From an archaeon (lineage in GTDB: Archaea; B1Sed10-29; WALL01): 64,000 bases of DNA. The notes beneath the pieces are model-generated. The model did no database searches. It was given only the letters and a program-made list of their open reading frames with translations, and was not told the origin of the DNA. Where the stretch lies: assembly GCA_042584585.1 (NCBI GenBank), contig JBHOSQ010000003.1:39644-103643 (forward strand), written 5' to 3'. Of this stretch, positions 576 through 57,862 are shown piece by piece; positions within the stretch are counted from its first letter, which is position 1, and each line of letters opens with the position of its first letter. The translations under genes and the position numbers were made by a program.

Positions 576-633
576 GCGGTGTCCCTCCCAAGTAGATTAT
601 CCATCATATGACTAACGCACAAGGGGTTATTAT

Positions 634-1392: not shown

Positions 1393-1418
1393 GTCATACT
1401 GGTAAGAGGTAGTATCAA

Positions 1419-2099
1419 TCAGATAATCTCCTCCCGGTAGACCACGATGCCCGACTTGGTTATTTTGAATGGGTACATTGCGTTTGAGTGCTGTACTCCA
1501 CGCATCTTGACTATTTCCAGCGCGCGGCGGCGCTCGTTCTTGATTGGGATGTTGTACAGCGAAATGACCCCGTCCACGATGAACTCTTCAAGAGTGTACT
1601 CCGCGCTCTCTCGCACCGCATAAGGCGCTTCCGCGGTGAACAGCACAGTGCAGTCAAGACCCTCCAGAAACTGGAGGAGCCCCATGATGTTTCGCCTGAA
1701 GTCGAACGGGTCCTGCGTGTTCATCTTGAGGAGTGTGAGTGTGTCAATCACAACGCGCTTCGTGTTGTGCCTTGTGATGTAGGCCTGGAGCACGTCGCTC
1801 AGCCGCTCCCAGTTGAAGCAGTCGACGGACACCAGCACAATGTTGCCGTTGTCGATTTGTCCCTTGAGGTCCCAGTCAAGGCCGGTCGAAAGGTTTTCCA
1901 CGAGCTTGTCCGGCTTTTCCTCGAGCATGACCATCAAGCCCTTCTCCCCCAAAAGCGCGCCGCGATAGAGGAACTCCATCGAAAAAGTTGTCTTGCCGGT
2001 CCCCGGGCCGCCAATCACCATTATGTGCCGCTTCTTGAGCAATCCGCCTCCAAGCATCTCGTCAAGGCCTTCGATTCCAGTGGGGACTCTGTCAACCAT
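1419..2099 (-). CDS. KaiC/RecA-superfamily single-domain ATPase (paralog 2)
   Basis: MVDRVPTGIEGLDEMLGGGLLKKRHIMVIGGPGTGKTTFSMEFLYRGA. Canonical Walker A, LEE after strand 2, Walker B RVVIDTLT, C-terminal IVKMRG motif. Confidence 0.85.
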   Translation of the reverse strand: MVDRVPTGIEGLDEMLGGGLLKKRHIMVIGGPGTGKTTFSMEFLYRGALLGEKGLMVMLEEKPDKLVENLSTGLDWDLKGQIDNGNIVLVSVDCFNWERLSDVLQAYITRHNTKRVVIDTLTLLKMNTQDPFDFRRNIMGLLQFLEGLDCTVLFTAEAPYAVRESAEYTLEEFIVDGVISLYNIPIKNERRRALEIVKMRGVQHSNAMYPFKITKSGIVVYREEII

Positions 2100-2160
2100 T
2101 TAAGCACCTAGTTGGGATAACTCGCAATACCTATAAAAGCGTTTAGCATGCGCAAGAGCC

Positions 2161-2796
2161 TTATTTCGTGCGCAGCCTGAAGCCTTTTGGGCCCAATTCA
2201 TAGAAAAAGTCCTTGGCCGGGACCTTGGTGTCGCGCATCTTTACTATGCGCAACCCTTTCTCCGAATCAAGGTTTACCACGCTGTCGCAAAGCGACCGGA
2301 AAGTGTTTTCCGCGTCCGAGGGATAAGTCCCAAGGTCAAGGGTGAACATGATGACTGACGACTTGGCCTTCACGATTGCGATTACCTGCTGCAGGAAGCG
2401 CTGGATTTCGTCGTCCGAGCTGTACAGCAGCAAAGGGGTCAGCGAGTCGAACAGCAGTATTGACCCCGGCTCAAGGGCGTCCTCGATGAGGAAAGTGATT
2501 TTGCTGAGGTTGGCAAGGGAGTCCACTGCCGCGGGCGCGCCGCTCAGCCACGAATAGCAGTCAATGAAAAACGCCTCGAACCCCAGCTTGAAGCTCGTCA
2601 TTTCCGCGCCGATTTCTTCCTGGGTGTTGTTGGTCAGCACAACGATTTTCTTGCCTTTTTCAGTGGTGTTCATCAGGGAAAGCGAGAAAATGGTTTTGCC
2701 GGCTCCGGGCGTGCCCTGCACGAGCACAGCCGACGCATTGGGCAGCCCAGGGACTATCTCGTTGAATTCCTTGATTCCGGTTTTGACGTGCGTCAT
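2161..2796 (-). CDS. KaiC/RecA-superfamily single-domain ATPase (paralog 3)
   Basis: TGIKEFNEIVPGLPNASAVLVQGTPGAGKTIFSLSL. Walker B is ILLFDSLT; C-terminal motif is RIVKMRD. Confidence 0.8.
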   Translation of the reverse strand: MTHVKTGIKEFNEIVPGLPNASAVLVQGTPGAGKTIFSLSLMNTTEKGKKIVVLTNNTQEEIGAEMTSFKLGFEAFFIDCYSWLSGAPAAVDSLANLSKITFLIEDALEPGSILLFDSLTPLLLYSSDDEIQRFLQQVIAIVKAKSSVIMFTLDLGTYPSDAENTFRSLCDSVVNLDSEKGLRIVKMRDTKVPAKDFFYELGPKGFRLRTK

Positions 2797-2852: not shown

Positions 2853-5800
2853 ATGCGAGGGCAAGGTGCCTCAGAGTTCCTTTTGCTGCTGTCATTTATA
2901 TTGCTTTTGATACTGCCAGTGGGGTATTACATATTCACCAACACAACCGAGTCGTCCCGTGTCCTCGAGGCAGACCTCGCGGTGAGCGCGCTCACGAAGA
3001 CGGCGAATTACGTTTATTACCAGTCGCCCGGCGCAAAGCAGGTCGTGACAGTGTTCCTGCCCGGTGGAATCGAATGGGCTGATAGCTACATCGGCCACCC
3101 CACGGAAAGCGGCGGCGAGGAAATCAACCTAGCGCTCTACACCCAGACGGGTGGGACGACTGATATAATTGGCCTCACAGAGGGAGAAGTCCGCGGCACG
3201 TGGCCCGACAGCAACGGGAACTATAGGTTCATGGTGAGGAAAACTGCGGATGGCTATGTCATAATCGGGCCGTACGAACAGACCTTCCTCCTCGAGCCAC
3301 AATCCTACACCACGACAATGGTGGCTGGGGCATTGGACTCGTTCACAATTACGGCAACTGAGCTCGAAGGCTCGGATCGGACGCTTACGCTTACGCCGGG
3401 CGGCGAAATCGCGACGTGGCTGTCCCTTGGGACGAGCTCGCTCGACCTAGCGGCGGACGCCCAGAACACGACGCTTGTCAACATAACCGTCCCCGCCGCC
3501 ACGCCCGCTGGCGTCTACACAGGCACAGTCGACGCGACTGACGGCGAGGTGACTGACGTTGTCTACATCACGGTGATTTCCCTTGGGCCAGTCACGCCGC
3601 CCGGTGGCATCGAGGGCGGGCTGCTCGTCAACATAACCCACCCAACAAACACCACTTACACAGAATGGCCGATTGACCTCAACTACACCGTGAACGCGAC
3701 CCCCGCCTGGTGCGGCTACACGCTGGACGGAAGCGTGCTCACTACGATAGACGGAAACGTCACCATGCTGCCGACGAACGGCTCGCACTACGTTACAGTT
3801 TTGTGTGTCAGTGCGGACGGAAAATCGGGCACGGACGACGAATGGTTCTCCACGGACTTCGGGAACGAGCCGTGGTGCTTCAACCTGACCATGCTCTGGG
3901 CGTACAACAGCACTTACGACGATGTCATGCCCGAGATCTTCACGAGCAACGATGTATACGCCGATGAACACGGCATCTTAGAAGACGCGCTCACCTTCAT
4001 TGACGCCACTTTCGAGTTCGCCATCAACCCAAACGTCGATGACGTAGTGATTCACAACATGTCGCAGGGGTGGGAGCACTACGAATCAGACGCCCAGATA
4101 GACCCCGTCCTGCAGTGGCAGCTCAACAATGGGTGGGGCGGCACGGTATGCCAGCTGCCGGCATACTCAAACCCGGCCCAAGAAGCGCTTGACGTCTGCA
4201 CGCTCTCGGAAGAGGAGGTGCCCGCAACGCCTGGCGAAGTGCTAATCCTCTCCACAAGGGTGTACTACCTGTCACAGTCGGCGTCGGCACACGAGGCGCA
4301 TATCGACTGGACTTACCTCACGGTTTGTTACGGCGAGGCGATAACTGAGCTCAACATAATCTCTCCGACGAACACGAATTACTCAGAGGAAAACATTTGG
4401 TTCAACATCAGCTCGAACTCAATGATGGACGAGGCATGGTTCTCGCTTGACGGTGCTGCAAACCACTCGCTGGGTGACAGCGGGTTCACCGCGTCACACC
4501 TGACTGGCGTTGGGTTTGGCGAGCACAACGTCACGTTCTACGCCAACGACTCCAATGGCAACATTATGTCCAACTGGACCACGTTTAACAGGACCGGGGG
4601 CGCCGTCGGGGGCAGCGCGCCGACCCACTTGACTCCGATACTGAACGCGACTTCCGCGAACAACCTGACGGCGGACAACCTCACCTGCTGGAACCAGAGT
4701 ACTTCTGACCCGGACGGCGACGCGGTGAAGAACATCTTCAACTGGAAGAAGGACGGGGAGTGGGCCATGGGATTGAACATGCCGTTCGAGGGTGGAAGTA
4801 ATAGCACCTGGATGGAGGACTATTCCGGGAACGACAACCACGGCACCAACACTGGCTCGACGTGGGACAACACAACTGGCTACGACGGCTGGGGGTCCTA
4901 CCACTTCGATGGCGCGACTGACTACATCACTGTCGCAGACTCTGCGTCGATAAATTTCACTGGGCCGTTCACGGTCTCGCTGTGGGCCAAGGCGGAAGTT
5001 GCCCCGGACCAGTGGGACACATTGTTGGTGAAGGCCACGAGTGACTGGTGGGACGACGGCTACGCCCTGTTCTATGACAGTGCCTCTACTGTGAAGTTCT
5101 ACCTCAATGGGTTCGACGAGGACTTCGCCACCGCCTCGCTGACGCCGACGCAGTGGAACCACATTGTTGGCGTGTACAACGGAAGCGCGCTGAGGATATT
5201 CGTTAACGGCACGGAAGGCACTCCTGACACCAGCATCACCGGGACCGGGCCCACCAACGCTGCGCCAATCAGGATTGGGTCGCACGACGGGGGCTACGAG
5301 CACCAGGGATGGATTGACGACATCTTGGTGTTCAACCATTCGCTGTCGCCGGAACAGGTTACGGCGCTCTACAACAACCAGACCAATTTGATTGTGTCGC
5401 AGGAGACGGATGAGGGCGACGTCTGGCAGTGTGAGATTACTCCGAACGACGGTGGCCAGGACGGCTTGACCAAGACATCGAATACCTTGACTATCGCCGA
5501 CAGCGTCGCGCCAGTAATAACGATAGTATCGCCCACGAACACTACATACAACGAGACCTGGGTCTGGATGAACATCACGCTCGACGAGAGCGGAAGCTGG
5601 GCGGGCTATTCTCTGGACGGCGCGGCCAATGTGACAATGACCGGAAGCGGCACGAGCTGGTACTACAACGCGAGCGGCCTCGCGGAGACCGGGCATACCG
5701 TGGTGTTCTACGCCAATGACTCGTGGGGCAACATGGGTGTAAGCGCGATGCGGTGGTTCACAATCGACACTGCCGCGGTAAGCGCGTGCCCGTACACGAT

Positions 5801-6494
5801 TGACGCGTGGGAGCTTGACACTGACAAGCCGCAGCCCATCGAGTTCACCAGTGGGTTGAACACGACGGCGAACACGTTTGGAATTGGTGGCGCGAGCGAC
5901 GGATGGGACTGGGCGTGGGACGTTTACGACAGTGGCAGCACATGTGTGTACTTCAACGGAAACGCGTACGTGAGCGCGGCGAGCCCGACCACAGGTGCGG
6001 TGAACACCGGGGTTAATGCTGATGACTTGATACGCATAGACATCGGCGACTCGCACGAGGTAGGCGATAGCGTGTGCAACCTTGACGGCCACGGCAGCGG
6101 CGCTTACGCGGTCAAGCTGGACGTGACTGGTGATATGTGGAGTGAGATAGCCAGTGGCGGCACCGCGACTGTGTACTTCGACTGGTCGTTCACTGACTAC
6201 GCGCTTGACAGTGGGGACGACGCTTGGGTGAAGGCGCGGTTCGGGAACTCTACCACGATGACTTACCTAGGCACGCAGGTCGGCGGCGGCAACGACGACG
6301 CGGACGCGGACATAATGTTCCAGAGCAACCCGGCGGATACAAGCGGCTCCGAGGCGATTGACGTGACGAGCCTGATTACTGAAGCTGGAAGCCACTACTT
6401 GGAGCTTGGGGCGCGGGTCTTTGACTGGGACAACAACGAGGGCGGGAACTTCGAGTTCGATAACGTGGACTTGAACGTCAGCTGCGCACCGTGA
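2853..6494 (+). CDS. Giant pilin-like surface protein / putative adhesin with class III signal peptide, LamG (concanavalin-A-like lectin) domain and three repeated beta-rich modules
   Basis: N-terminus is MRGQGASEFLLLLSFILLLILPV. The LamG-like segment is YHFDGATDYITVADSASINFTGPFTVSLWAKA...WNHIVGVYNGSALRIFVNGTE...IRIGS...GWIDDILVFNHSLSPEQV (about nt 4770-5387). Repeats of the type SPTNT(T/N)Y...LDGAAN...V(T/V)FYANDS.GN occur at about 3621-3851, 4347-4589 and 5511-5765. I count roughly 40 N-x-S/T sequons by eye. Confidence 0.85.
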   Translation: MRGQGASEFLLLLSFILLLILPVGYYIFTNTTESSRVLEADLAVSALTKTANYVYYQSPGAKQVVTVFLPGGIEWADSYIGHPTESGGEEINLALYTQTGGTTDIIGLTEGEVRGTWPDSNGNYRFMVRKTADGYVIIGPYEQTFLLEPQSYTTTMVAGALDSFTITATELEGSDRTLTLTPGGEIATWLSLGTSSLDLAADAQNTTLVNITVPAATPAGVYTGTVDATDGEVTDVVYITVISLGPVTPPGGIEGGLLVNITHPTNTTYTEWPIDLNYTVNATPAWCGYTLDGSVLTTIDGNVTMLPTNGSHYVTVLCVSADGKSGTDDEWFSTDFGNEPWCFNLTMLWAYNSTYDDVMPEIFTSNDVYADEHGILEDALTFIDATFEFAINPNVDDVVIHNMSQGWEHYESDAQIDPVLQWQLNNGWGGTVCQLPAYSNPAQEALDVCTLSEEEVPATPGEVLILSTRVYYLSQSASAHEAHIDWTYLTVCYGEAITELNIISPTNTNYSEENIWFNISSNSMMDEAWFSLDGAANHSLGDSGFTASHLTGVGFGEHNVTFYANDSNGNIMSNWTTFNRTGGAVGGSAPTHLTPILNATSANNLTADNLTCWNQSTSDPDGDAVKNIFNWKKDGEWAMGLNMPFEGGSNSTWMEDYSGNDNHGTNTGSTWDNTTGYDGWGSYHFDGATDYITVADSASINFTGPFTVSLWAKAEVAPDQWDTLLVKATSDWWDDGYALFYDSASTVKFYLNGFDEDFATASLTPTQWNHIVGVYNGSALRIFVNGTEGTPDTSITGTGPTNAAPIRIGSHDGGYEHQGWIDDILVFNHSLSPEQVTALYNNQTNLIVSQETDEGDVWQCEITPNDGGQDGLTKTSNTLTIADSVAPVITIVSPTNTTYNETWVWMNITLDESGSWAGYSLDGAANVTMTGSGTSWYYNASGLAETGHTVVFYANDSWGNMGVSAMRWFTIDTAAVSACPYTIDAWELDTDKPQPIEFTSGLNTTANTFGIGGASDGWDWAWDVYDSGSTCVYFNGNAYVSAASPTTGAVNTGVNADDLIRIDIGDSHEVGDSVCNLDGHGSGAYAVKLDVTGDMWSEIASGGTATVYFDWSFTDYALDSGDDAWVKARFGNSTTMTYLGTQVGGGNDDADADIMFQSNPADTSGSEAIDVTSLITEAGSHYLELGARVFDWDNNEGGNFEFDNVDLNVSCAP

Positions 6495-7072
6495 TTGAAA
6501 TGGATGAGCTGGAGAATAGCATAGCTGCACTCGAGAAGGCGAGGGGTCAGCTGCATGTAAAGAAGCCGGGGCACGGCAAGACAATTGCAGTGATAGCAAT
6601 AGCTATAATCGCGGTGGCGGCGCTGCTCGCGCTCGCGGCGCTTGTTGTGGTACAGGCTGGGCTGCCGGAAATTGGGCTGCCTAGTATACCAGAAATCGAG
6701 CTGCCGGACATGGACTCGCCGGTGATTGAAGAGCCGGAAGCCCCAACCGCCCTTCCGGTTGATGCCTTCCCCCTCACTGGGTCTTACGTATGCACAGTAA
6801 CTGGCAATGATTACCATGTGTACGAGGAGTCGTACTTTTACCTTGAGGGGGAGAACCTTGCGATTGTTGGCGACGGGCAGAAGTTGATTGTAACGCCTGG
6901 ACGCAGGCAAGTAAGGGAAGCCGCGGCCCAGGACTTCTTCGTGTTCGCGCCAGGGGTGGTGTGCATTGAGGACGGTGAGCCAGAGCGGATAATGGAGGAG
7001 GCGGGAGAAACCGGCATCATTGCTTTCGGCGGCACGGACTACGTGGTCGAGCCGGGGAAGGTCGACGGATGA
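6491..7072 (+). CDS. Hypothetical bitopic membrane protein of the pilus operon
   Basis: 193 aa with a single TM segment (TIAVIAIAIIAVAALLALAALVVVQAG) after a short N-terminal helix. GTGA overlap with the upstream gene and ATGA overlap with the downstream gene. No family recognised. Confidence 0.6.
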   Translation: MIEMDELENSIAALEKARGQLHVKKPGHGKTIAVIAIAIIAVAALLALAALVVVQAGLPEIGLPSIPEIELPDMDSPVIEEPEAPTALPVDAFPLTGSYVCTVTGNDYHVYEESYFYLEGENLAIVGDGQKLIVTPGRRQVREAAAQDFFVFAPGVVCIEDGEPERIMEEAGETGIIAFGGTDYVVEPGKVDG

Positions 7073-7479
7073 GGGGGCAAGTCACTTTCGAGTTCCTTGG
7101 GACGGTAGTGGTGGCCATGCTGATTTACGCAATATTCAGCACGTACATATTCATACAGTTTGAGTCCCTGCTGCCGTGGCAAAACCAAAACTATGACGCG
7201 AGATTCTACGCCGAGCAAATAGCAGAAGCAATTGACTACGCCCACTTCGGCGGCGATGGCTACCACGACACTTTCGTGCTGCCGGAGCAAATACGCAGCC
7301 GGAACTACACTGTTTTCTACAGCAGCGGCATCATCGAGGTCGACATAGTGGACTTGGGGGATGTGGACAGCTACGGCATCGCTCATGTGGTCGCGCCGCA
7401 GGTCGGGATGTTCAGCGTGGGCAATGGCACTAACCACGTGGTGAACTCGAACGGCACTGTGGGGGTGTGGGTCCAGTGA
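7069..7479 (+). CDS. Pilin-like protein (class III signal peptide), minor pilin candidate
   Basis: MRGQVTFEFLGTVVVAMLIYAIF: a short basic leader, then G, then a hydrophobic helix. 4-nt ATGA overlap with the upstream stop. Confidence 0.7.
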   Translation: MRGQVTFEFLGTVVVAMLIYAIFSTYIFIQFESLLPWQNQNYDARFYAEQIAEAIDYAHFGGDGYHDTFVLPEQIRSRNYTVFYSSGIIEVDIVDLGDVDSYGIAHVVAPQVGMFSVGNGTNHVVNSNGTVGVWVQ

Positions 7480-7913
7480 AGAAGGGACAGGCGTTCACCA
7501 TGGACTTGTTCGTGGCGTACACGGTCTTCATGATTGTGATGCTGGTAATAACGCTGATGTCGCTGTGGGTCGGGAGCGCAATCCATGAGAAAGAAGAAGT
7601 GGATGCCATGAGCCTGAGGGCGATTGCGGGGCTTGACTACTTGTGCTACAGCGACAACTTCACTGACGAGCCGTACAAGCTGAAGACACCTGAAGTACAA
7701 TGGTTCTTCAGCCAGAGCGACGATGCCGTGCGTGACGCGCTGCGGCCGGGATGGAACTATTCGCTGGAGCTTAACTGGCTTAACGGCACGACTTTGCTTT
7801 CCGCGGGGGGGTACATGTCGAAGGCGGATAGGGTCGTGTCCTTCGAGCGCCTCGTGTACTACAATGACAACCGCGCAAAGCTGATAATGAGCGTGTGGGA
7901 GGAACGGAAGTGA
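7476..7913 (+). CDS. Pilin-like protein (class III signal peptide), minor pilin candidate
   Basis: I chose GTG at 7476 (GTGA overlap with the upstream stop), giving MKKGQAFTMDLFVAYTVFMIVMLVITL. The track start at 7467 is in frame and also possible. Confidence 0.65.
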   Translation: MKKGQAFTMDLFVAYTVFMIVMLVITLMSLWVGSAIHEKEEVDAMSLRAIAGLDYLCYSDNFTDEPYKLKTPEVQWFFSQSDDAVRDALRPGWNYSLELNWLNGTTLLSAGGYMSKADRVVSFERLVYYNDNRAKLIMSVWEERK

Positions 7914-8344
7914 GCCGCGGGTTCTACATGAGCATCGACATATCAATAGCCGTGGCCATGACGTTTCTCATCCTCATGGTGCTCATGATTACTTTTGGGA
8001 ACATCCCGAAGTCCGTTGTCGTGGAGACGGGGAACTACAAAGTGGGGGAAAGCACGCTCTACACCATGAAGCACGATGGCACGCTCGACCAAATCGTCGC
8101 GTATCTTGAGAATGGGCAGGAGGGCCGGGCGAAGGGGGAAGCGGTTTCGGCCATGGCTAATTACAATATCGTCATGAAGTCGCGGCTCACTGTCACGACG
8201 TACAACGAGTCTCTTGTCCCGGTTTATACCATGACCGCCAAGAAGGGCGCGATTAAGGAAAAGGCGTATGCGATGAGCATTCCATTCAAGGCGGACGGCA
8301 CTGACAGTGCTTTTGGGATAGCGACTCTGGTGGTGGGGGTATGA
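7910..8344 (+). CDS. Pilin-like protein (class III signal peptide), minor pilin candidate
   Basis: I chose GTG at 7910 (GTGA overlap), giving MSRGFYMSIDISIAVAMTFLILMVLMI. The track start at 7895 is in frame. Confidence 0.6.
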   Translation: MSRGFYMSIDISIAVAMTFLILMVLMITFGNIPKSVVVETGNYKVGESTLYTMKHDGTLDQIVAYLENGQEGRAKGEAVSAMANYNIVMKSRLTVTTYNESLVPVYTMTAKKGAIKEKAYAMSIPFKADGTDSAFGIATLVVGV

Positions 8345-9357
8345 AGAAGGGATTCGTGTTTTCGCTCTTGATTACTCTCTTGCTGGGATTCTTCATGCTT
8401 ACGGCGCAGTACTACCTTCTGGATCGGCCGGAGAGAAGCATATCCACGACGTTCAAGGTAACGAAGGAACTGGTGACTGGCGGCGTTGCCGCCGACATGG
8501 CGACAGATTTTCCGGCAGTGCATCGGGGGGCGCACATGGTTGTGACAGAGTCGATGCCGTCCAGCGGGTTGGACACGGGGGTTACGCTGTGGAGTGGCTT
8601 TCTCACGATTTACGAGAACAGCACGTTCCACAACGTGAGCATTGACACGACCAACTCTTCCACGCTGTCGACGAAGCTGTGGCTCGCGGGCAACGGGACT
8701 GATTACGTGCGTGACGGCAGCTCGTTTTCGCTCAGCCACACGGGGGGTTATCTGCTCGTCAATGACACTATGGACCTGAGCTTGAACTACAGCAGCTGCA
8801 GCCTTGACGCGGGAGGCAGTGTTGAAACGCGAATTATCCTCGGCCCGTTCGACACTGGAGTAAAATACACGACGCCGGGCAGCAGCTACTCGTGCTTCGT
8901 GAACTTCACAACAGGCGACGAGGTAAGCATAACGATTAACACGGCCAACACTCTGTCGATTGACTACTCGGGGTTTTCGGGGAACTACACGCAGCGCATT
9001 GGGTTCGACGGGCCGGAAAACCTTTACGTTGTTTTTGACAAGTATAACGTTACGCTTGGCGCGACCCAGGGGTGGACTGAGGAGTTCCCGGGCACCAAGA
9101 AGTACGGTGTCGTTGGGGGCATGAACTTTGTTGTGGCGGACATTGACAACGACACGAATTACGATTACGCGTTCGCGGACGTGGGGGCGGACACGCTCTT
9201 CAACTCAACGGACGACCGCTGGTACCTCAAGGAAGGCACTGTGGGGCTTGGCGGCAAAGTGTTTTATATTCGCTTTGATTTAGCTGGTAATTGGCTGGTG
9301 CTGTATAACGCACTTGGCGTGAGCTCCCTTAACTCTTGGAGAGGGGTGGTGTTGTAA
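8341..9357 (+). CDS. Large pilin-like protein (class III signal peptide), N-glycosylation-sequon rich
   Basis: MKKGFVFSLLITLLLGFFML at the N-terminus; 338 aa. Sequons include NSTF, NVSI, NSST, NGTD, NDTM, NYSS, NFTT, NYTQ, NVTL, NDTN and NSTD. ATGA overlap with the upstream gene. Confidence 0.7.
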   Translation: MKKGFVFSLLITLLLGFFMLTAQYYLLDRPERSISTTFKVTKELVTGGVAADMATDFPAVHRGAHMVVTESMPSSGLDTGVTLWSGFLTIYENSTFHNVSIDTTNSSTLSTKLWLAGNGTDYVRDGSSFSLSHTGGYLLVNDTMDLSLNYSSCSLDAGGSVETRIILGPFDTGVKYTTPGSSYSCFVNFTTGDEVSITINTANTLSIDYSGFSGNYTQRIGFDGPENLYVVFDKYNVTLGATQGWTEEFPGTKKYGVVGGMNFVVADIDNDTNYDYAFADVGADTLFNSTDDRWYLKEGTVGLGGKVFYIRFDLAGNWLVLYNALGVSSLNSWRGVVL

Positions 9358-9572
9358 TGGAAAAGAGGATTGAAACACAGGCGGACGACTTGCTGATGAT
9401 GCTCAGGAGGGAAAAGCGCATGAGTGTGCCGCAGCTCCAGAAGGCGCTCGGCGTTGAGTCGATGCTTCTGGAAAAATGGATTACAATATTTGAGGCGAAC
9501 GGGACGGTTGACCTGATTTATCCTGCCAACCCGATTGACCCGCCGTACGTGGTGATTAAGCATGACAAGTAA
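9357..9572 (+). CDS. Small hypothetical protein, possible winged-helix fold
   Basis: I chose ATG at 9357 (TAATG overlap with the upstream stop), giving MEKRIETQADDLLMMLRREKRMSVPQLQKALGVESMLLEKWITIFEANGTVDLIY. The helix-turn-helix-like pattern is a guess from sequence only. Confidence 0.45.
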   Translation: MEKRIETQADDLLMMLRREKRMSVPQLQKALGVESMLLEKWITIFEANGTVDLIYPANPIDPPYVVIKHDK

Positions 9573-11004
9573 GGACCCTAAAGAGTTGGACCCGCTGAAG
9601 GAGTTTGACGAGACAATCGGCGCGATGGACAAGCGGATTGCCGGGATGAAGGATCGCGGCTACTTGCCTAAGTACCTCGAAAAGCTCAAGGACCGGAGAG
9701 GTGAGCTTGTTTACGCTCTGAACCAGGGGGACAAGGAAAAGGCGGCCGAGATAATCGACTTGGCGATTGAGTTCGGCAAGGAAATCAACAAGATGAAGGA
9801 CGTGAAGCCCGCGCCACTGGGGTTCGTCAAGTCATTGATACCGAAGCGCAGGAAAAAGATTGAAGCCGCGCCCAAGAAGGAAGTGGTGGAAGCGAAGAAA
9901 GTGGTTGCCGAGAACACGAAGGTGTACGACAGCGAGCTGAACATGCTCACGGTCGAGCTGGCGAAGAGAGAGGTCGAGCTCGAGGGCCTGAAGGGCGCCT
10001 ACGCCAATTTATCCGCCGAGATGGGTGAGATGAGGCGGAAGATGGAGGAGAAGGAGGCAAAGGACGTCAAGGCGCTGTCGGCGCAGATTGTCGAGCTGAA
10101 GAAGGGCTTGGACGGCATGCACGGCACCATGGCCACGGAATTCAAGAACGGGAAGGCGGCTTACACTGATTTCGGGTCGGAATTGTTGAGCCTCGCGATA
10201 AAGGTGTCGGAGCTCGAGGACTTGATTGAGTCCGGTGACCTGGTGACTGAGGTCGACGTGATTGAACTGAACCACGCAGTGGGCTCGCTCGAGAAAAAGC
10301 TGGTCTTGGTCGAGGCCAGGCAAAAGACGGAGCGGCTTGCGTTGCTGGACAAGGTCCAAAACGACCAAAAGAAAATGATGAAGCAGCTGGCGGGCAAGGC
10401 GGACACACAGAAGATGGTGTCCGCGATGAAGCAGTACGTCAGCGAAATCAAGCACGACGTCGCGGAACAGGAGACGCGCCTGGCCGCAGAGATGCAGGTG
10501 GAGCTCAAGAGCTCTTACTACACGCTGGACCAGAAGCTCAAGAAGCTTGAGAAGGCATTGGGCAAGGCACGGACCAAAAAAGACTTGGTGTCTGTCCAGG
10601 CAAAGGTAGAGGAATTGGGCAAGCACGTCGAGAAGGTGCGGGGGGAGGAGATGCGGCTGAAGCGCGAGATGGACCAGCAGCACTTGAGCGACGACGCCAT
10701 CCTGCAGCGGATTAACAGCGTGTCGGAGCGCGTGAGGAAGAGCGGAGAAATGGACTCGCTCGCGATTGCGGACGTGTACAAGACGATTGACGCGCTTGAG
10801 GCGCAGGTGAGCATGAGTGACGCCGAAAGCAAGAAGGCCAAGGCAATGGCGCGGTCGATTAGCGCCATCAAGAAAGACTTGTCCGTGATAGAGGGCGAGG
10901 CGGAAGATGTTTCCCCGAAGGGCAAGCGCAAACCGTCTTCGGCGAAGCCGAAGACAAGGGCTAAGGCTGTCAAGAAAAAAGCCAAGGCGAAGAAAAGGCT
11001 GTGA
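9562..11004 (+). CDS. 480-aa K/E-rich coiled-coil protein with lysine-rich C-terminal tail, no TM segment
   Basis: Heptad-like K/E/L/A composition throughout. The tail is KGKRKPSSAKPKTRAKAVKKKAKAKKRL. Overlaps the upstream gene by 11 nt. No family recognised. Confidence 0.7.
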   Translation: MTSKDPKELDPLKEFDETIGAMDKRIAGMKDRGYLPKYLEKLKDRRGELVYALNQGDKEKAAEIIDLAIEFGKEINKMKDVKPAPLGFVKSLIPKRRKKIEAAPKKEVVEAKKVVAENTKVYDSELNMLTVELAKREVELEGLKGAYANLSAEMGEMRRKMEEKEAKDVKALSAQIVELKKGLDGMHGTMATEFKNGKAAYTDFGSELLSLAIKVSELEDLIESGDLVTEVDVIELNHAVGSLEKKLVLVEARQKTERLALLDKVQNDQKKMMKQLAGKADTQKMVSAMKQYVSEIKHDVAEQETRLAAEMQVELKSSYYTLDQKLKKLEKALGKARTKKDLVSVQAKVEELGKHVEKVRGEEMRLKREMDQQHLSDDAILQRINSVSERVRKSGEMDSLAIADVYKTIDALEAQVSMSDAESKKAKAMARSISAIKKDLSVIEGEAEDVSPKGKRKPSSAKPKTRAKAVKKKAKAKKRL

Positions 11005-11087
11005 AGAAAGCAAAGAAAAAGGCGAGCAAACGGTCTTCGACAAAGCCTAAGCCAAAGAAAAAGTTGTTCGGACTCCTCGGTGGTTAA

Positions 11088-11357
11088 ATGGAAGAAGTTG
11101 CGTACGGTGACAGTGAAAGGGTCAAGGAAGTGAAGGCCTGGCTAAAGAAAGGCATGAAGATAGCCGAGGTGCGCGAGAAACTGGAAAAGTTTGGGTACAG
11201 CAGCTATCACGTCGCGTTTTTGCTTGAGGAGGCGACCGGCAAGTCGTTCGTGCCGGCGAAGCCCATTGTGTTGATTGACACCACGAAGGTCAAGGCTGTG
11301 GTGATAATTGCCGTGGTCGCGGTAATCGCGTTCGTGTTGGTAACTTGGGTCCTGTAG
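11088..11357 (+). CDS. Small C-terminally membrane-anchored hypothetical protein
   Basis: 89 aa: a helical N-terminal domain followed by the TM segment AVVIIAVVAVIAFVLVTWVL. Lies immediately upstream of the secretion ATPase. Confidence 0.5.
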   Translation: MEEVAYGDSERVKEVKAWLKKGMKIAEVREKLEKFGYSSYHVAFLLEEATGKSFVPAKPIVLIDTTKVKAVVIIAVVAVIAFVLVTWVL

Positions 11358-11368
11358 GTGAATGAAAA

Positions 11369-13057
11369 ATGGTGACTGTTGACGAGCTGAAAAAGGCTTT
11401 GGAGGAGCTTGAGGAGAGCAAGAAAAACCTCAAGGGGAAGAAAAAGCGGGTGGAGAAGAAAATAGGTCCACTCAAGGAAGTCAAGCTCTCCAAGAAAGTC
11501 AAGGCCATGAAGGCCCAGGACTTGCCTGGCAGCGAGGTCTACGTCGCGACGCACTACGAGGGCAAGCTCATGAACGAGTATAACCTCACGACCGAGCGCA
11601 TCCCAGTCAACATAAAGATTGTGAGGCCGCCGAGCGGCTACAACCCGGTGTATGATGTTTACCTCCCTGACATCGGGGAGGGAACGTGGATTATGCTCAA
11701 GAAAATCCGCAACGAGATAACATCCGAGGTCGGCATCCGTGGCAGGGAAATCCTGGACGTGAAGCTGCAGAAGACCATTGAGGCAAAGTTCCGGGAGAGC
11801 GCGACCAAGAAGCTGATTAAGTACTTGCCCAAGACCGACGAGAAGTCATTGGTCGTGCTCACGGAGTACTTGATTAACGACATGCTTGGCCTTGGAAAGC
11901 TTGAGCTGTTGCTTGACGACGACGGGCTCGAAGAAATCGTGATTAACTCGTCGAAGGAGCCGGTGTGGGTCTACCACAAGATGCACGGCTGGCTCAAGAC
12001 CAACCTGATGGTCGAGGACGACGCGCAGATTGCGGACTACGCCAACGCCATTGGAAGGCGGGCGGAGAGGCAGATAAACACATTAAACCCATTGATGGAC
12101 GCGCACCTCAGCACAGGGGAGCGTGTCAACGCGACGCTGCTGCCGATTTCGACTGACGGCAACACCATAACAATCCGGAAGTTTTCGCACGACCCGTGGA
12201 CCATCACAGGGTTCATAGAGAACAAGACGGTTGACTCCAAGATTGCCGCGCTGCTGTGGACCGCGATGCAGTACGAGCTGAACATGATTGTCGCGGGTGG
12301 CACGGCAAGCGGAAAAACGTCGATGCTTAACTCGATGACCCCGTTCCTTCCGCCGAACCACCGGATCATATCGATTGAGGACACGAGGGAATTGAGGCTG
12401 CCGAGCTACCTGCACTGGGTGCCGATGGTGACGCGCCAGCCCAACCCCGAGGGCAAGGGCGGGGTCAGCATGCTTGACCTCATGGTGAACTCCCTGCGTA
12501 TGAGGCCAGACCGCGTGATAGTGGGTGAAATCAGGCGGCACGACGAGGCCGAAGTGTTGTTCGAGGCCATGCACACGGGGCACAGTGTTTACTCGACGCT
12601 TCACGCCAACACAGCCGACGAGGTTCGGCGGCGGCTGGTGACGCCTCCGCTGAGCATTCCCGAGACGCTGATGGAGTCTTTGCACTTGGTTAGTGTGCAG
12701 TTCAGGCACAGGAAGCTTGGGATTAGGCGGGTGCTTGAGATTGCGGAAGTGCTGCCGAGCGCTGAGGGTACGGTGTCGTTCAGGACGATTTACAAGTGGC
12801 GCGCGGGGCAGGACACGTTCGGGAAGCTCAAGGACTCTGTGCGCGTGATTCCAGAGATACAGCTGTTCACTGGCATGAGCCTCAGGGAGATAAACGAGGA
12901 GCTGAAGCAAAAGGAAAGCGTGCTGGACTGGCTTGTGAAGAACAAGGTCAACAGCACCGACCAGATTGGCAAGATAATAAGCGAGTATTACATCAATGAG
13001 GACGTAGTTGTCGGGGCAATGAAGAAGAACAAGGACCCGCAAGAGCTGATGAGATAA
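11369..13057 (+). CDS. Type IV pilus / archaellum-family assembly ATPase (FlaI/PilB/GspE/VirB11 superfamily)
   Basis: Walker A is AGGTASGKTSMLNSM. Other motifs are IISIEDTRELRL, RPDRVIVGEIRRHDEAEVLFEAMHTGHSVYSTLHANTADE and NTITIRKF. There is a K-rich coiled N-terminal extension. Confidence 0.9.
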   Translation: MVTVDELKKALEELEESKKNLKGKKKRVEKKIGPLKEVKLSKKVKAMKAQDLPGSEVYVATHYEGKLMNEYNLTTERIPVNIKIVRPPSGYNPVYDVYLPDIGEGTWIMLKKIRNEITSEVGIRGREILDVKLQKTIEAKFRESATKKLIKYLPKTDEKSLVVLTEYLINDMLGLGKLELLLDDDGLEEIVINSSKEPVWVYHKMHGWLKTNLMVEDDAQIADYANAIGRRAERQINTLNPLMDAHLSTGERVNATLLPISTDGNTITIRKFSHDPWTITGFIENKTVDSKIAALLWTAMQYELNMIVAGGTASGKTSMLNSMTPFLPPNHRIISIEDTRELRLPSYLHWVPMVTRQPNPEGKGGVSMLDLMVNSLRMRPDRVIVGEIRRHDEAEVLFEAMHTGHSVYSTLHANTADEVRRRLVTPPLSIPETLMESLHLVSVQFRHRKLGIRRVLEIAEVLPSAEGTVSFRTIYKWRAGQDTFGKLKDSVRVIPEIQLFTGMSLREINEELKQKESVLDWLVKNKVNSTDQIGKIISEYYINEDVVVGAMKKNKDPQELMR

Positions 13058-13941
13058 TGGATGACTACCTTCCGCCACTGCCCATGCCCCGGGACCGGGC
13101 GCTGAAGCTAGCAGGTTCGCTGGCGTTCATTGGGTACCAGGTGACGAGGATTCAGCCCGCCATAATCTCTGACCTTGCCGAGGCGGAAATGAAGTGGGAC
13201 CCTTCAGAGTACGCGACACTGGCGGTTATCTCGGCGCTGTACCAGGCAGTCCTTATCATGGGGCTGATGGCGGTGCTGGGCTACGTCATGCAGGACTGGG
13301 ACGTTGCGCTTTATGGCGTGGGAGTGGGCCTCGTGTTCGGGGGATTCATGTTCATGCGCGCCTTGTTTTACCCGTCCTACACGGTAAGGCGAAGGGTCCG
13401 CGAAATAGAAAAGAACTTCTTGTATGCCTTGAGGCACATGCTCATCCAGGTGATGGGCGGGACGCCCGTGTTCAACTCCATGGTGAGCATTTCCGAGGTT
13501 GGGTACGGGGAAATATCCGACGAGTTCCTGAGGGTGGTCCGCGAGATTAACTCGGGGCATTCGATGACTGACGCGCTTGAGGCCATGGCGCTGCGGAACC
13601 CATCCATTTACCTGCGGCGGATGATTTGGCAGATTGTGAACGCGCTGCGCACGGGGAGCGACATGGGCGAGACGCTGCGCGTGGTCGTGGAACAGTTCAC
13701 TGCCGAGCAGCGCGTGCTGCTCCAGAAGTTCTCGAAAGAGCTTGGGCCGTGGGCAATGATGTACATGATGGTGACAGTGATCTTCCCGACGCTTGGGATA
13801 ACCCTGTTCCTCATCCTTTCGTCGCTGTCGTCCATGCAGCTCAACGAGACCATGCTGTTGTCGTTCGTGATTATTTCGATTGTCATCCAGTACTTTTTCA
13901 TCCAGTTCCTGAAGACAAAGAGGCCGGTGATGAGGTGGTAG
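13057..13941 (+). CDS. Pilus platform membrane protein with one T2SF (GspF/TadB/TadC/FlaJ-type) domain
   Basis: FLYALRHMLIQVMGGTPVFNSMVSISEV.YGEISDEFLRVVREINSGHSMTDALEAMALRNPSIYLRRMIWQIVNALRTGSDMGETL, flanked by TM helices. TAATG overlap with the ATPase gene. Confidence 0.8.
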   Translation: MDDYLPPLPMPRDRALKLAGSLAFIGYQVTRIQPAIISDLAEAEMKWDPSEYATLAVISALYQAVLIMGLMAVLGYVMQDWDVALYGVGVGLVFGGFMFMRALFYPSYTVRRRVREIEKNFLYALRHMLIQVMGGTPVFNSMVSISEVGYGEISDEFLRVVREINSGHSMTDALEAMALRNPSIYLRRMIWQIVNALRTGSDMGETLRVVVEQFTAEQRVLLQKFSKELGPWAMMYMMVTVIFPTLGITLFLILSSLSSMQLNETMLLSFVIISIVIQYFFIQFLKTKRPVMRW

Positions 13942-14002
13942 CATAGAAACTTTCCAGGAAAGGGTCGCGAACCTCCTCGAGCGGAACCTCCCCAAGTTCC
14001 TC

Positions 14003-14971
14003 GTGGACGCAACGAACCAGGCATTGGTTTACGCAGGCATGGAAATGCGCCCGGGCCGCTGGCTCATGTTCTCGATAGCAAACTCTTTCCTGCTTGGCTT
14101 CGCCGTGGCAGTCGGCATACAGGCGTTCCTCGGGGAGGAGCTGCCAATGCTGTTCATAGGCGGGACAACGCTCTTCATTGGGGGGGCGTTCATCGGCGTG
14201 TTCCACAATATCCTGGTCTACTACGGGGGCAGGAGGGCGCTGCAGATAGAGCTGATGCTTCCGGACGCGCTGCAGCTGATTGCCGCGAACATTCGCGCAG
14301 ACATCCCAATCCACAAGTCCCTGTTGCTGGCTGCCAGGCCGGAATTCGGGCTGTTGGCCCAGGAAATAGAGAAAGTGGGGAACAGCATCCTAGGGGGAAT
14401 GCCGACGAGCAAGGCATTCACCGCGTTCGGGCTGCGCGTCAAGTCCCCAATGATTAGGAGGATTACGACGCTCATGGAGGAGGGCCTGCGGTCCGGGCAC
14501 GATTTGGCGGGCATGCTTGACCAGGTCGCGTATGACCTTCGGGTGTTCAAGATACTGGACGAGGAGGCCAAGGCCAACATCGGGTCCTACGTGATTTTCA
14601 TTGTTATGGCCGTGCTGGTTATTGCCCCGGTGCTGTACTCCATCTCAATTTCGTTCATTAGCCTGAACGAGCAGGTTAAAGAGACGCTGAACATTGGGGA
14701 ATTGGTGAGCCAGGTGTCGGTTGGGAGCAGCTCGACGCTCGTGGGCCTCGTGTCGGGGGACAGCGGGGTGAGTTCGGATACCCTGGCGTTTTTCGCGGCG
14801 CTTAACCTGGCGGCGAGCGCCGGCATAGCCGCCATACTGGTTTCCGTGCTTGAGACGGGCGAAGCGCTGCAGAAAATGCCGTATATCCCCACGTTTATAG
14901 TCGTGGCGGAGGCGATTTTCTTTGTCACACTCACGGTTTTGAGGATTGTATTGGGCGGAATCTTCGCTTAA
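14003..14971 (+). CDS. Second pilus platform membrane protein with one T2SF domain (start uncertain)
   Basis: LPDALQLIAANIRADIPIHKSLLLAARPEFGLLAQEIEKVGNSILGGMPTSKAFTAFGLRVKSPMIRRITTLMEEGLRSGHDLAGMLDQVAYDL. Its frame is open from 13934, upstream of the GTG at 14003. Confidence 0.75.
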   Translation: MDATNQALVYAGMEMRPGRWLMFSIANSFLLGFAVAVGIQAFLGEELPMLFIGGTTLFIGGAFIGVFHNILVYYGGRRALQIELMLPDALQLIAANIRADIPIHKSLLLAARPEFGLLAQEIEKVGNSILGGMPTSKAFTAFGLRVKSPMIRRITTLMEEGLRSGHDLAGMLDQVAYDLRVFKILDEEAKANIGSYVIFIVMAVLVIAPVLYSISISFISLNEQVKETLNIGELVSQVSVGSSSTLVGLVSGDSGVSSDTLAFFAALNLAASAGIAAILVSVLETGEALQKMPYIPTFIVVAEAIFFVTLTVLRIVLGGIFA

Positions 14972-15036: not shown

Positions 15037-15489
15037 ATGAAAAAACGAGGACAAGGAGCAATGGAATACCTGATGACTTATGGGTGGGCAATACTTGTAG
15101 TCATCATTGTGGGAATAGTGCTTTGGCAGTCAGGTGTGTTTGGCACCGGTGCAGGCGGCGTAAGCGGCTTCAACCGTGTAAGGATTGAGGACCAAGCGTG
15201 GTCCAACACCACTGGATGGACAGCTAGCTACGAGAACGCAGCCGGCGGAACAATGAAGAAAGTCAACATAACATTGACTGGGGACCTCCCGCTCAATGGC
15301 AGTGTAGACGGCTACACAAACAACACTGGCACTAACTGGGCGCCTGGCAAGGAATACTTAATCTCCGCACCCAACGAATTTTGCCAAGAAGGCGAAGGAT
15401 ACGCCGTTGATGTAACGATTGAGTACGCATCCGAGGCTGGCATCACCCACACTGAAACAGGCACAGTCCGTGGCAAGTGCGAAGCATAA
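15037..15489 (+). CDS. Small pilin with class III signal peptide (candidate major pilin)
   Basis: MKKRGQGAMEYLMTYGWAILVVIIVGIVLW; 150 aa. It has its own promoter and SD, and is followed by a hairpin plus T-run. Confidence 0.8.
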   Translation: MKKRGQGAMEYLMTYGWAILVVIIVGIVLWQSGVFGTGAGGVSGFNRVRIEDQAWSNTTGWTASYENAAGGTMKKVNITLTGDLPLNGSVDGYTNNTGTNWAPGKEYLISAPNEFCQEGEGYAVDVTIEYASEAGITHTETGTVRGKCEA

Positions 15490-15517: not shown

Positions 15518-15549
15518 CTTATAGTTTTAAATAGCGTTGAGTGTTAACT

Positions 15550-56843: not shown

Positions 56844-56996
56844 ATGGAAGCTTACTGCGTCAAGTGCAAAGCTAAGGTCGAGATTAAGGACGGCGGAGAA
56901 GTCATTATCGACACCAAGCGCGGCAAGAAAAAGTTCATGATGGGCCTGTGTAGTGTCTGTGGCACCAAAGTGTCCCGCGTGCTAGGTAATGCTTAA
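56844..56996 (+). CDS. Small zinc-ribbon protein (two CxxC pairs)
   Basis: Below the track's size cutoff. The sequence is MEAYCVKCKAKVEIKDGGEVIIDTKRGKKKFMMGLCSVCGTKVSRVLGNA*. The pattern CxxC...N23...CxxC resembles a widespread about 50-aa zinc-ribbon family (I recall it as DUF5679-like; unverified). Confidence 0.5.
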   Translation: MEAYCVKCKAKVEIKDGGEVIIDTKRGKKKFMMGLCSVCGTKVSRVLGNA

Positions 56997-57862
56997 GCGA
57001 ACAAGAGCCACAGTAGGGTGTCACCGACCAATAGGTTCAGCAATAGCGAGATAATGATGTAGGGCCCGAACTTCGGCAAGTATTCCTGGACAATAACCTG
57101 CTTTATCCCGTGCTTGCGCGCGTTCTTTTTGAGTGTCTTTAGCTCCATTTCCAAGAGGGTTTTCCTGCTCCCGAGGCCGAGCTTTTTCTTCATTGACTGG
57201 CTCATCAGCTCAAGCGCTATTACGTCGTCGTCGTTCAGCTTGCTCACCGCTTTTTTCTCAACGACATAAAGACGCAGGATGTCTTCCTTGAACGCCAGCA
57301 CGAACGCGCCGAGCGCAAGCGGAAGCGCGATAATCAGCATCCGGGGGCTCAAGTAAAACCAGATTATCCCGAGTGGAAGAGTCATGGCGGAGTAGAGGAT
57401 GCCCTTGAACGACTTCGTCCTGAAGTGCTTGACTTTCTTGTGGTCACGGTAGAGGCTGTGGAGATAGCCCACTGAAACAAACGCCATGGCCAGCACAGCC
57501 GACGTGAAAAAGACACTCACGACAAAAGGATAAGGCGCCACCACCGGATTCAAGCCAAACACCGCGAGCGACATCGGGTAAGTCGGGAGCAAAAGCGCGA
57601 GCGCGGTGAATAGCTTCACGTCGCCCCCGCCAAGCTGACCGAAAGTATAGAACACAAAAGAAACCGCGGCAACTATGCCTGCGGCGATATAGAACGGGAT
57701 TGCGGCCTCCCAGCCACTATAGAGCGGGAGCAGCAATGCGCCGAGCACAATCATTGCGTGCGTGTACTTGTCCGGCATGTACCCCGTCTTGTAATCAGTG
57801 TGTGCGACCATCGCGGTCCCAATAACCGCTACCGTGGCTCCCAACAGTTCAAACATCGTCAT
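56993..57862 (-). CDS. Archaeal type IV prepilin/preflagellin peptidase (A24 aspartyl protease; PibD/FlaK/EppA-like)
   Basis: First catalytic Asp is in HTDYKTGYMPD. The second is in the GxGD motif QLGGGDVKLF. The protein is polytopic, 289 aa, with an extra C-terminal region. Confidence 0.85.
   Translation of the reverse strand: MTMFELLGATVAVIGTAMVAHTDYKTGYMPDKYTHAMIVLGALLLPLYSGWEAAIPFYIAAGIVAAVSFVFYTFGQLGGGDVKLFTALALLLPTYPMSLAVFGLNPVVAPYPFVVSVFFTSAVLAMAFVSVGYLHSLYRDHKKVKHFRTKSFKGILYSAMTLPLGIIWFYLSPRMLIIALPLALGAFVLAFKEDILRLYVVEKKAVSKLNDDDVIALELMSQSMKKKLGLGSRKTLLEMELKTLKKNARKHGIKQVIVQEYLPKFGPYIIISLLLNLLVGDTLLWLLFA

Follow-up and report, generated by a model that had tools for sequence, protein, structure and literature searches.

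A giant modular protein of a DPANN archaeon, probably a minor pilin and adhesin of an Epd-like type IV pilus

The stretch of DNA analysed here, referred to as the window, covers 64,000 nucleotides of contig JBHOSQ010000003.1 (positions 39,644 to 103,643, forward strand) in the archaeal genome assembly GCA_042584585.1, and positions are counted from its first letter. The gene at 2853-6494 (+) is an intact frame with an ATG start, and its 1213-amino-acid (aa) product is designated as P0001. In this DPANN archaeon, whose relatives are labelled Aenigmatarchaeota and Iainarchaeum, P0001 is probably a modular minor pilin that serves as the adhesin on a type IV pilus of the Epd-like "system 1". The protein begins with a class III (prepilin) signal and a pilin-sized module, continues with a long array of beta-sandwich and lectin-like modules, and is encoded at the head of a pilus operon. 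The source genome is ~1.0 Mb in size and 84% complete. The coordinates of the features are summarized in Table 1.

The N-terminus of P0001 (MRGQGASEFLLLLSFILLLILPVGYYIF) includes the signal MRG/QGASEF LLLLSFILLLILPVGYYIF with ~20 hydrophobic residues, and the predicted cleavage site is after G3. The mature protein would then start with Gln and have Glu at +5 and Phe/Tyr at +6. The arrangement G/xxxxE(Y/F) is the processing pattern of Flp/Tad-type pilins. G3, Q4, E8 (Glu+5), F9, and L10 are invariant in nine homologues of P0001, and the N-terminus is nearly unchanged in the homologues of 817-1469 aa. In 32 pilin-sized relatives, E8 is invariant and the conservation of Q4 is at least 90%. The Pfam model Class_IIIsignal matches 16 of 32 aligned relatives at e-values of 0.1 or lower, with the best e-value 3.2e-6. 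The prepilin-type signal proposed in the initial annotation is therefore well founded on the invariant G/Q...E(F/Y) signature, and the homologues retain the K/R-G-hydrophobic pattern, contrary to what an ordinary Sec signal or membrane anchor would predict. No membrane anchor is present at the C-terminus of P0001.

The similarity to pilins extends beyond the signal. Residues 1 to ~140 match whole free-standing proteins of 122-150 aa with e-values from 1e-7 to 1e-18. When aa 1-256 were searched against 1.84 billion representative proteins, 409 family members were recognized at e-values of 1e-3 or lower, and the lengths of the 150 listed members range from ~100 to 1444 aa. Other sizes among the listed matches are ~230-250 aa (with one Ig-like domain added), ~355 aa, and up to 1444 aa. 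The family thus takes the forms of pilin alone, pilin with an immunoglobulin (Ig)-like domain, and pilin with many modules. Because aa 1-145 match pilin-sized whole proteins as well as longer variants, this part of P0001 appears to be a pilin-sized module that exists alone and with varied additions. A scan of the genome contigs with a back-translated pattern of the whole protein found no relative, whereas a search of genomes did find relatives.

The gene for P0001 is the first in a plus-strand run of overlapping or closely spaced genes, and the gene order of this operon is kept in 10 related genomes across the class. It had been regarded as the lead gene of a pilus operon, in agreement with the ATPase, the two platform proteins, and the five further class III proteins that are encoded downstream. 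The two T2SSF genes beside a gene for a FlaI/TadA-like ATPase argue for an Epd-like ("system 1") type IV pilus operon. Two platform genes are the hallmark of system 1 of archaeal type IV filaments (T4F), which comprises Epd-like pili and is reported in methanogens, Thermococcales, and DPANN, also called Nanobdellati (PMC13705601). The operon ATPase shows sub-threshold matches to the NCBIfam FlaI and TadA models. At least 591 stretches were found as relatives of this ATPase, and the titled ones are from DPANN archaea, with the labels Aenigmatarchaeota, Iainarchaeum, Micrarchaeota, Nanohaloarchaeota, and Woesearchaeota. The genome has two Peptidase_A24 genes, and the copy in the window is located ~40 kb from the operon, not in it.

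The four overlapping pilin-like genes downstream constitute a set that is syntenic across the class. In gene order, the N-termini of their products are MRG/QVTFEF, KKG/QAFTMD, SRG/FYMSID, and KKG/FVFSLL. The first of them is distantly paralogous to the P0001 pilin module (hhalign 87.5%, e-value 3.6e-6), and the other three (7467-9357, +) have no acidic residue at +5. One candidate for the capping subunit is the 338-aa protein of this set, which has no acidic residue near its N-terminus; its density of N-glycosylation sequons is 3.25 per 100 aa.

A gene for a 150-aa class III protein is found at the end of the operon, and the same position is occupied by such a gene in every complete locus examined. 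This protein is likely to be the major pilin, a role that we infer. Its N-terminus is MKKRG/QGAMEYLMTYGWAILVV (MKKRG/QGAMEY...), and no family match was obtained for it in the scans. It is very improbable that P0001 is the major structural subunit instead, with its extension decorating the whole shaft. The first place in the operon and the retained Glu+5 would suit such a subunit, but ~1,070 extra residues would be hard to fit into helical pilin packing, and the conserved 150-aa protein is the better shaft candidate. In addition, the architecture of the big protein differs within one genus, which is unexpected for a shaft.

Another explanation is that P0001 is a membrane-anchored display protein, similar to those of the bindosome. 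Its signal would be cut and its helix would stay in the membrane or in a short pseudopilus stub, and the protein would function as a surface adhesin or substrate catcher. Class III signals of archaea are also observed on non-filament surface proteins, and the sugar-binding proteins of the Sulfolobus bindosome behave as membrane or stub display proteins. The operon ATPase weakly matches the NCBIfam bindosome ATPase model, and Glu+5 is retained in P0001. Genome-wide, 16-17 open reading frames (ORFs) carry the class III motif [KR]GQxxxE[YF], seven of them with at least 490 aa and several clustered on contigs C7 and C9, and this number exceeds the apparent need of one tip. T4F machineries adapted for substrate binding have also been discussed (PMC13705601). 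However, aa 1-145 are homologous over the full length to pilin-sized proteins, not only in the signal, and the gene is translationally coupled to small pilins and assembly machinery in an arrangement seen class-wide. The display protein is therefore considered rather unlikely, and the minor pilin is preferred.

Downstream from the pilin module, aa 146-580 were modelled by AlphaFold2 as a string of beta-sandwiches consisting of IgN, repeat A, DomX, and repeat B, with the predicted local distance difference test (pLDDT) per block mostly 77-93. An Ig-like segment had been pointed out from the sequence, and the quoted stretch is within IgN (aa 146-250). IgN accompanies the pilin module across the class. 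It shows weak Pfam hints to NPCBM_assoc and GH123_N_2, and no sequence relation to the three Ig-like repeats. These repeats were also described in the initial annotation, at nucleotides 3621-3851, 4347-4589, and 5511-5765. They are in frame (aa 257-333, 499-579, and 887-971) and truly related to one another; the z-scores of the local alignments are 7.0 for A-B, 12.8 for A-C, and 19.0 for B-C, and the observed score was not attained in any of 500 shuffles. Repeats related to C are present in other large proteins.

DomX, between repeats A and B, is a conserved domain that had been overlooked. Its invariant residues are SDD, EHxE, two Cys, and one Asp, and the domain is duplicated in some homologues. 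No Pfam match to DomX was found in the domain scan of P0001. A word-index search with DomX alone returned only the query, while a profile search with DomX recovered relatives. Foldseek with the 600-residue multi-domain model gave only generic Ig-like strings (ciliary proteins, complement, and NCAM), and these matches are uninformative for DomX.

The LamG, or concanavalin A-like lectin, domain that the initial annotation had recognized was verified. The domain search that it had called for found Laminin_G_3 (PF13385) at aa 686-836, well above the cut-off (e-value 5.5e-23; 82.2 bits against the cut-off of 27.6; profile positions 1-150 of 151), and a DPDGD motif precedes the domain at aa 619. A same-genus ortholog from genome G002 is 76.3% identical to P0001 over all its 913 residues and is devoid of exactly aa 580-878, the cassette that includes the LamG domain and its two flanks. 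The protein from G001, in the same genus, is also devoid of repeat C. When the operons of G000 and G002 are compared gene by gene, identities lie between 53% and 80%, mostly at 66-80%, and the big gene does not stand out. Among close relatives, it is the architecture that varies rather than the sequence.

Other archaeal LamG proteins contain the same flank-LamG-flank unit, frequently as tandem copies. The best match to the cassette, with 67% identity, is a LamG protein with a Sec signal labelled Nanoarchaeota. When a donor was sought in the same genome, the one LamG protein found was a distant one on contig C6, and the composition of the cassette is not anomalous. LamG and its flanks constitute one mobile, lineage-specific cassette and not a conserved part of the family. 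Against PDB, the only credible match of the LamG cassette is 5hon, a domain of an extracellular arabinanase (e-value 0.0033). Matches to TAL-effector repeats in PDB were rejected as an artefact of repeats in the targets, because their summed e-value of 1e-11 comes with 0 significant stretches. Within 4599-5504 (+) of the window, many sub-threshold matches of this kind are yielded by aa 796-842, IRIGSHDGGYEHQGWIDDILVFNHSLSPEQVTALYNN.

The C-terminal domain (CTD) had been delimited as an unassigned domain of 260 aa; it is a real conserved unit, but its length is 239 aa (975-1213). The CTD is found in only ~15-20 proteins. Its AlphaFold2 model has a predicted template modelling score (pTM) of 0.76 and is confident in the C-terminal two thirds only. 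Foldseek revealed weak similarity of the model, with e-values from 1e-5 to 1e-3, to MAM domains, carbohydrate-binding module (CBM) families CBM27, CBM4, CBM11, and CBM16, the sugar-binding domain of Fbs1, the tips of phage tail fibres, and the Bdellovibrio proteins Bd1399 and Bd2734. The search of PDB sequences with the CTD profile gave nothing significant. The predicted model supports a binding-type fold and no particular ligand. The CTD is also present in vWA-carrying giants with class III-like N-termini, and P0212, a giant with vWA and CTD, heads another gene cluster with an ATPase and two T2SSF genes. A JGI metagenome contig (L108:8001-16586) encodes a 1071-aa protein with a class III-like N-terminus, a vWA-like sequence, and a CTD; this gene is upstream of two genes with no family assignment, an ATPase gene, and two T2SSF genes. 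In P0214 and P0036, the CTD is present twice in tandem.

The resemblance of the CTD model to CBM27, CBM4, CBM11, and CBM16 leads to the possibility that P0001 serves for nutrient capture rather than cell adhesion. It would then be a binder of polysaccharides or glycoproteins on the pilus or the cell surface, with LamG, DomX, and the CTD as carbohydrate-binding modules. The weak match of the LamG region to the arabinanase domain agrees with such a function, as does the affiliation of Laminin_G_3 to the lectin/glucanase superfamily. On the other hand, phage receptor-binding tips and MAM domains resemble the CTD just as closely, and no catalytic domain was found in P0001 or among the scanned operon proteins. 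A small genome of this kind is commonly taken to indicate dependence on a partner cell (PMC6393860), which is background and no test. Nutrient capture is thus an improbable role compared with adhesion.

P0001 contains 39 N-x-S/T sequons, close to the number of about 40 given in the initial annotation and well above the 15.8 +/- 3.4 observed in 2000 shuffles (maximum 29). Among the genome's 444 ORFs with 300 aa or more, for which the median is 0.27, this density of 3.2 sequons per 100 aa ranks 7th. Most of the other top-ranked ORFs start with signal-peptide-like N-termini. A homologue of AglB/STT3 is encoded in the genome.

A different organization is seen in the sister family f8 (genomes G016, G018, and G019). 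The first gene encodes a protein of 357-420 aa composed of the pilin module and an Ig-like domain, and the next gene encodes a 679-743-aa protein that has an ordinary signal peptide, as judged by inspection, and DomX immediately behind it, at aa ~21-170. The DomX profile matches these second proteins with e-values from 1e-20 to 1e-44, and the DomX protein with a Sec signal from G019 also carries Laminin_G_3. P0001 is the single-polypeptide counterpart of a pilin and a neighbouring secreted adhesin, and the presence of split and fused forms argues for a joint function of the pilin and the DomX adhesin. The proposal that the fused form is the derived state was dropped, since an 802-aa ORF on contig C19 of G014, from another family, is also possibly fused, its single frame joining the pilin module to a region that weakly matches DomX; fusion and fission are both possible. 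A genome of the same family as P0001 encodes a second, paralogous giant of 1206 aa (L107, G005:C20:11500-15120), which contains the pilin module and a DomX-like domain and adjoins a KaiC-like gene and another ATPase gene.

Taken with established pilin biology, these features suggest the following mechanism. The class III signal would insert in the membrane, and an A24 peptidase would cut after Gly3, so that Gln+1 and Glu+5 remain. Extraction of the N-terminal hydrophobic helix into the filament would be the task of the ATPase and the two platform proteins. Given its bulk, P0001 would most likely enter at or near the tip, as part of a priming complex with the four small pilin-like proteins, and the 150-aa class III protein would build the shaft. 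Based on the domain content, the remaining ~1,070 residues would form a heavily N-glycosylated string of beta-sandwiches and present three lectin-like modules (DomX, LamG, and CTD), which may recognize glycans or proteins of a partner cell or of a surface. The processing, the position at the tip, and the binding are extrapolated here from pilin biology and from the PilA/PilB/PilC model of Streptococcus sanguinis (PMC9934059).

Several points weigh against the assignment of P0001 as a tip-associated pilin adhesin. Cleavage, incorporation, tip position, and ligand binding are predicted from sequence. P0001 keeps Glu+5 while three of the neighbouring small pilins do not, and bacterial tip-capping pilins typically have no Glu+5. 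Because of the retained Glu+5, P0001 may sit below the cap or along the shaft, and need not be the capping subunit. The LamG and CBM-like folds are no proof of sugar binding, and the structural matches of the CTD are weak, with TM scores of ~0.3. The profile of the pilin family against PDB gave archaeal flagellin as the best match (e-value 0.056) and PAK pilin (e-value 0.55), neither of which is significant. The AlphaFold2 model of aa 19-142, from a 9-sequence alignment, has pLDDT of ~30 and provides no confident pilin fold; helices 4-20 and 33-47 are predicted in this low-confidence model of the pilin module. The score of Class_IIIsignal (PF04021) on P0001 is 10.2-13.8 bits, below the cut-off of 23.7, although the model is short, with 27 positions, and a miss carries little weight.

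The sub-threshold signal score and the pilin fold without a confident model would also be compatible with an ordinary Sec-exported or N-terminally anchored surface protein whose class III resemblance is coincidental. Such a coincidence is hardly credible, given that G3, Q4, and E8 are invariant across divergent homologues, and that both the family-wide homology to pilin-sized proteins and the operon context speak against it. Moreover, the adhesins of the split forms carry a clearly different, ordinary signal peptide, and because of this, two types of N-termini are distinguishable in these organisms.

The assignment as a minor pilin can be compared with characterized systems. PilB, with a vWA module, and PilC, with a concanavalin A-like lectin module, are modular minor pilins of the tip complex in S. 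sanguinis (PMC9934059, PMC8179133). P0001 has in common with them a class III signal, a pilin moiety, and adhesive modules grafted C-terminally, and with PilC a lectin module of the concanavalin A-like superfamily. The genes are located beside those of other minor pilins, which form the tip complex in S. sanguinis, and a role in adhesion is proposed. PilB and PilC are bacterial, bimodular proteins of ~50 kDa, whereas P0001 is archaeal and its pilin part is followed by ~nine modules, of which three are lectin-like. No sequence relationship of the two pilin moieties was seen, with no search directed at one. The function of PilB and PilC is proven, while that of P0001 is predicted.

In archaea, class III adhesins were predicted in Epd loci (PMC4858521, PMC13705601). 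Similar to these system 1 loci, the operon analysed here contains an ATPase gene, two platform genes, several minor pilin genes, and a gene for a large class III lectin-type protein. An Epd-like locus would be expected to include a dedicated class III peptidase gene in the cluster; for this operon, the prepilin peptidase is encoded outside. The Epd major pilin is short and has no globular domain, and the 150-aa candidate major pilin is not obviously of that type. A large adhesin presented by minor pilins is also seen with the non-pilin tip adhesins PilY1/PilC of type IVa pili and with the arCOG03511 PilY-like proteins in archaeal subsystem 4A/B (PMC13705601). The split forms of the sister family follow the PilY1 logic, while in P0001 the adhesin is covalently fused to the pilin module. 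No PilY1 beta-propeller was detected in the domain scans of P0001.

TafC is a laminin G-bearing minor subunit of haloarchaeal Tat-fimbriae and was modelled at the filament end (PMC11821415). P0001 is likewise a LamG-bearing archaeal protein, and the NCBIfam TafC model matches aa 660-843 with an e-value of 2.1e-17. Membership in the TafC family (NF052521) was rejected, because the score is 63.3 bits against the cut-off of 410 and only the LamG region is matched. TafC is exported by the Tat pathway and assembled by donor-strand exchange, whereas P0001 has no twin-arginine motif; its N-terminus contains a single Arg and the class III pattern. The large vWA minor pilins of the TadG/CpaL type in bacterial Tad pili are adhesive pilin-like proteins accompanied by a TadA-like ATPase and a split TadB/TadC-like platform. 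P0001 resembles them in the G/xxxxE(Y/F) motif, the large pilin-like protein, and the locus with a TadA-like ATPase and a split platform. Unlike TadG/CpaL, P0001 contains no vWA domain, and vWA is found in other CTD-bearing proteins.

Pilins with lectin domains of this size had been called unusual in the initial annotation. This view does not hold: PilC of S. sanguinis is a proven case of the design (PMC9934059), others are predicted in Epd loci (PMC4858521, PMC13705601), and this one genome contains the seven large class III-motif ORFs. As a general design, the architecture was established earlier in bacteria and had been predicted for archaea, and it recurs in DPANN. What is new here is the size with many modules, the two domains (DomX and CTD) with no significant Pfam match, the turnover of the cassette, and the split counterpart. 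These features add finer detail and a useful test case rather than a new principle.

DPANN archaea are generally regarded as living in attachment to other cells. This locus provides a concrete candidate for the molecules that make and specify the contact, with an adhesin tied to a pilin at the head of a complete, class-conserved pilus operon. The binding modules differ even within the genus, and the fused and split forms are genomic evidence for the pilin and the DomX adhesin acting together. DomX, LamG, and the CTD are accessible to recombinant study without cultivation of the organism. A more speculative idea, less likely than not, is that the giant pilin determines the host specificity of episymbiotic DPANN. 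The heads (DomX, the LamG cassette, vWA, and CTD) would be exchanged as cassettes between Sec adhesins and pilins, re-aiming the pilus at new partners. If so, the exchange of heads would resemble the swapping of phage tail-fibre tips, and a DPANN tip adhesin could either dock onto the pilus as a protein of the PilY1 kind or be covalently joined to a pilin.

Table 1. Features of P0001, its operon, and the prepilin peptidase gene in the window
Feature	Position	Strand	Basis or remark
Whole gene, modular pilin-like adhesin P0001 (predicted)	2853..6494	+	Open frame; orthologs of relatives at the same operon position
Class III (prepilin) signal, leader MRG, Gln+1, Glu+5, hydrophobic to ~aa 28	2853..2936	+	Conserved residues
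Pilin module, aa 1-145	2853..3287	+	End-to-end alignment with stand-alone 122-150-aa proteins
IgN, Ig-like/CARDB-like beta-sandwich, aa 146-250	3288..3602	+	AlphaFold2, block pLDDT ~80-90
Ig-like repeat A, aa 255-336	3615..3860	+	Related to B and C; beta-sandwich model
DomX, 160-aa beta-rich domain, aa 337-498	3861..4346	+	Conserved block; AlphaFold2 block pLDDT mostly 80-89
Ig-like repeat B, aa 499-579	4347..4589	+	Related to C; beta-sandwich, pLDDT 82-93
Inserted 299-aa cassette, aa 580-878 (DPDGD flank, LamG, second flank)	4590..5486	+	Absent from the G002 ortholog
Laminin_G_3 / concanavalin A-like lectin domain, aa 686-836	4908..5360	+	Pfam PF13385
Ig-like repeat C, aa 885-974	5505..5774	+	Repeat alignment; weak Big_13 match (e-value 0.021)
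CTD, aa 975-1213, predicted jelly-roll, invariant DGWDW	5775..6491	+	AlphaFold2, conservation
193-aa single-pass membrane protein	6491..7072	+	Start overlaps the stop of the big gene
Four overlapping pilin-like genes, candidate minor pilins (7069-7479, 7467-7913, 7895-8344, 8341-9357)	7069..9357	+	Class III-like N-termini
480-aa K/E-rich protein (9562-11004) and 89-aa protein (11088-11357)	9562..11357	+	Conserved accessory genes
Pilus assembly ATPase (FlaI/TadA/VirB11 family)	11369..13057	+	Pfam T2SSE, e-value 7e-35
Two platform genes (13057-13941, 14003-14971), one T2SSF domain each	13057..14971	+	Pfam
150-aa class III protein, candidate major pilin	15037..15489	+	Conserved position
A24 prepilin peptidase homologue, 289-aa ORF	56993..57862	-	Peptidase_A24, 52.2 bits, over the cut-off

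Among the remaining genes of the operon, the gene for the 193-aa protein is present in G002, and is not in the next-gene position of G001, G003, and G004. The 480-aa and 89-aa proteins, encoded directly upstream of the ATPase, obtained no family assignment from the operon domain scan, and both are conserved in related loci; the former has a basic tail and the latter a hydrophobic C-terminal stretch. The operon is flanked by four genes for KaiC-like ATPases and a gene for a V4R-domain protein, at 3-2796 (-) and 15541-16224 (+) of the window. The V4R gene and the KaiC-like genes other than the one downstream of the candidate major pilin are located upstream, in divergent orientation. Related loci across the class also have the divergent KaiC gene beside the big gene and the one that follows the candidate major pilin.

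Contigs C2, C3, and C5 carry at least five genes for T2SSE-family ATPases. With this number in a 1.0-Mb genome, several type IV filament systems are probably present. The members of a second class III family share the N-terminus MKRGQGSLEYLLILAAILAI and are encoded on contigs C5, C7, and C9 (e.g., C7:45538-59490 and C9:26818-34671). The smallest is a 121-aa pilin on C5, whose gene adjoins those for an ATPase and an A24 peptidase, and the others extend to giants of 490-1572 aa clustered on C7 and C9.

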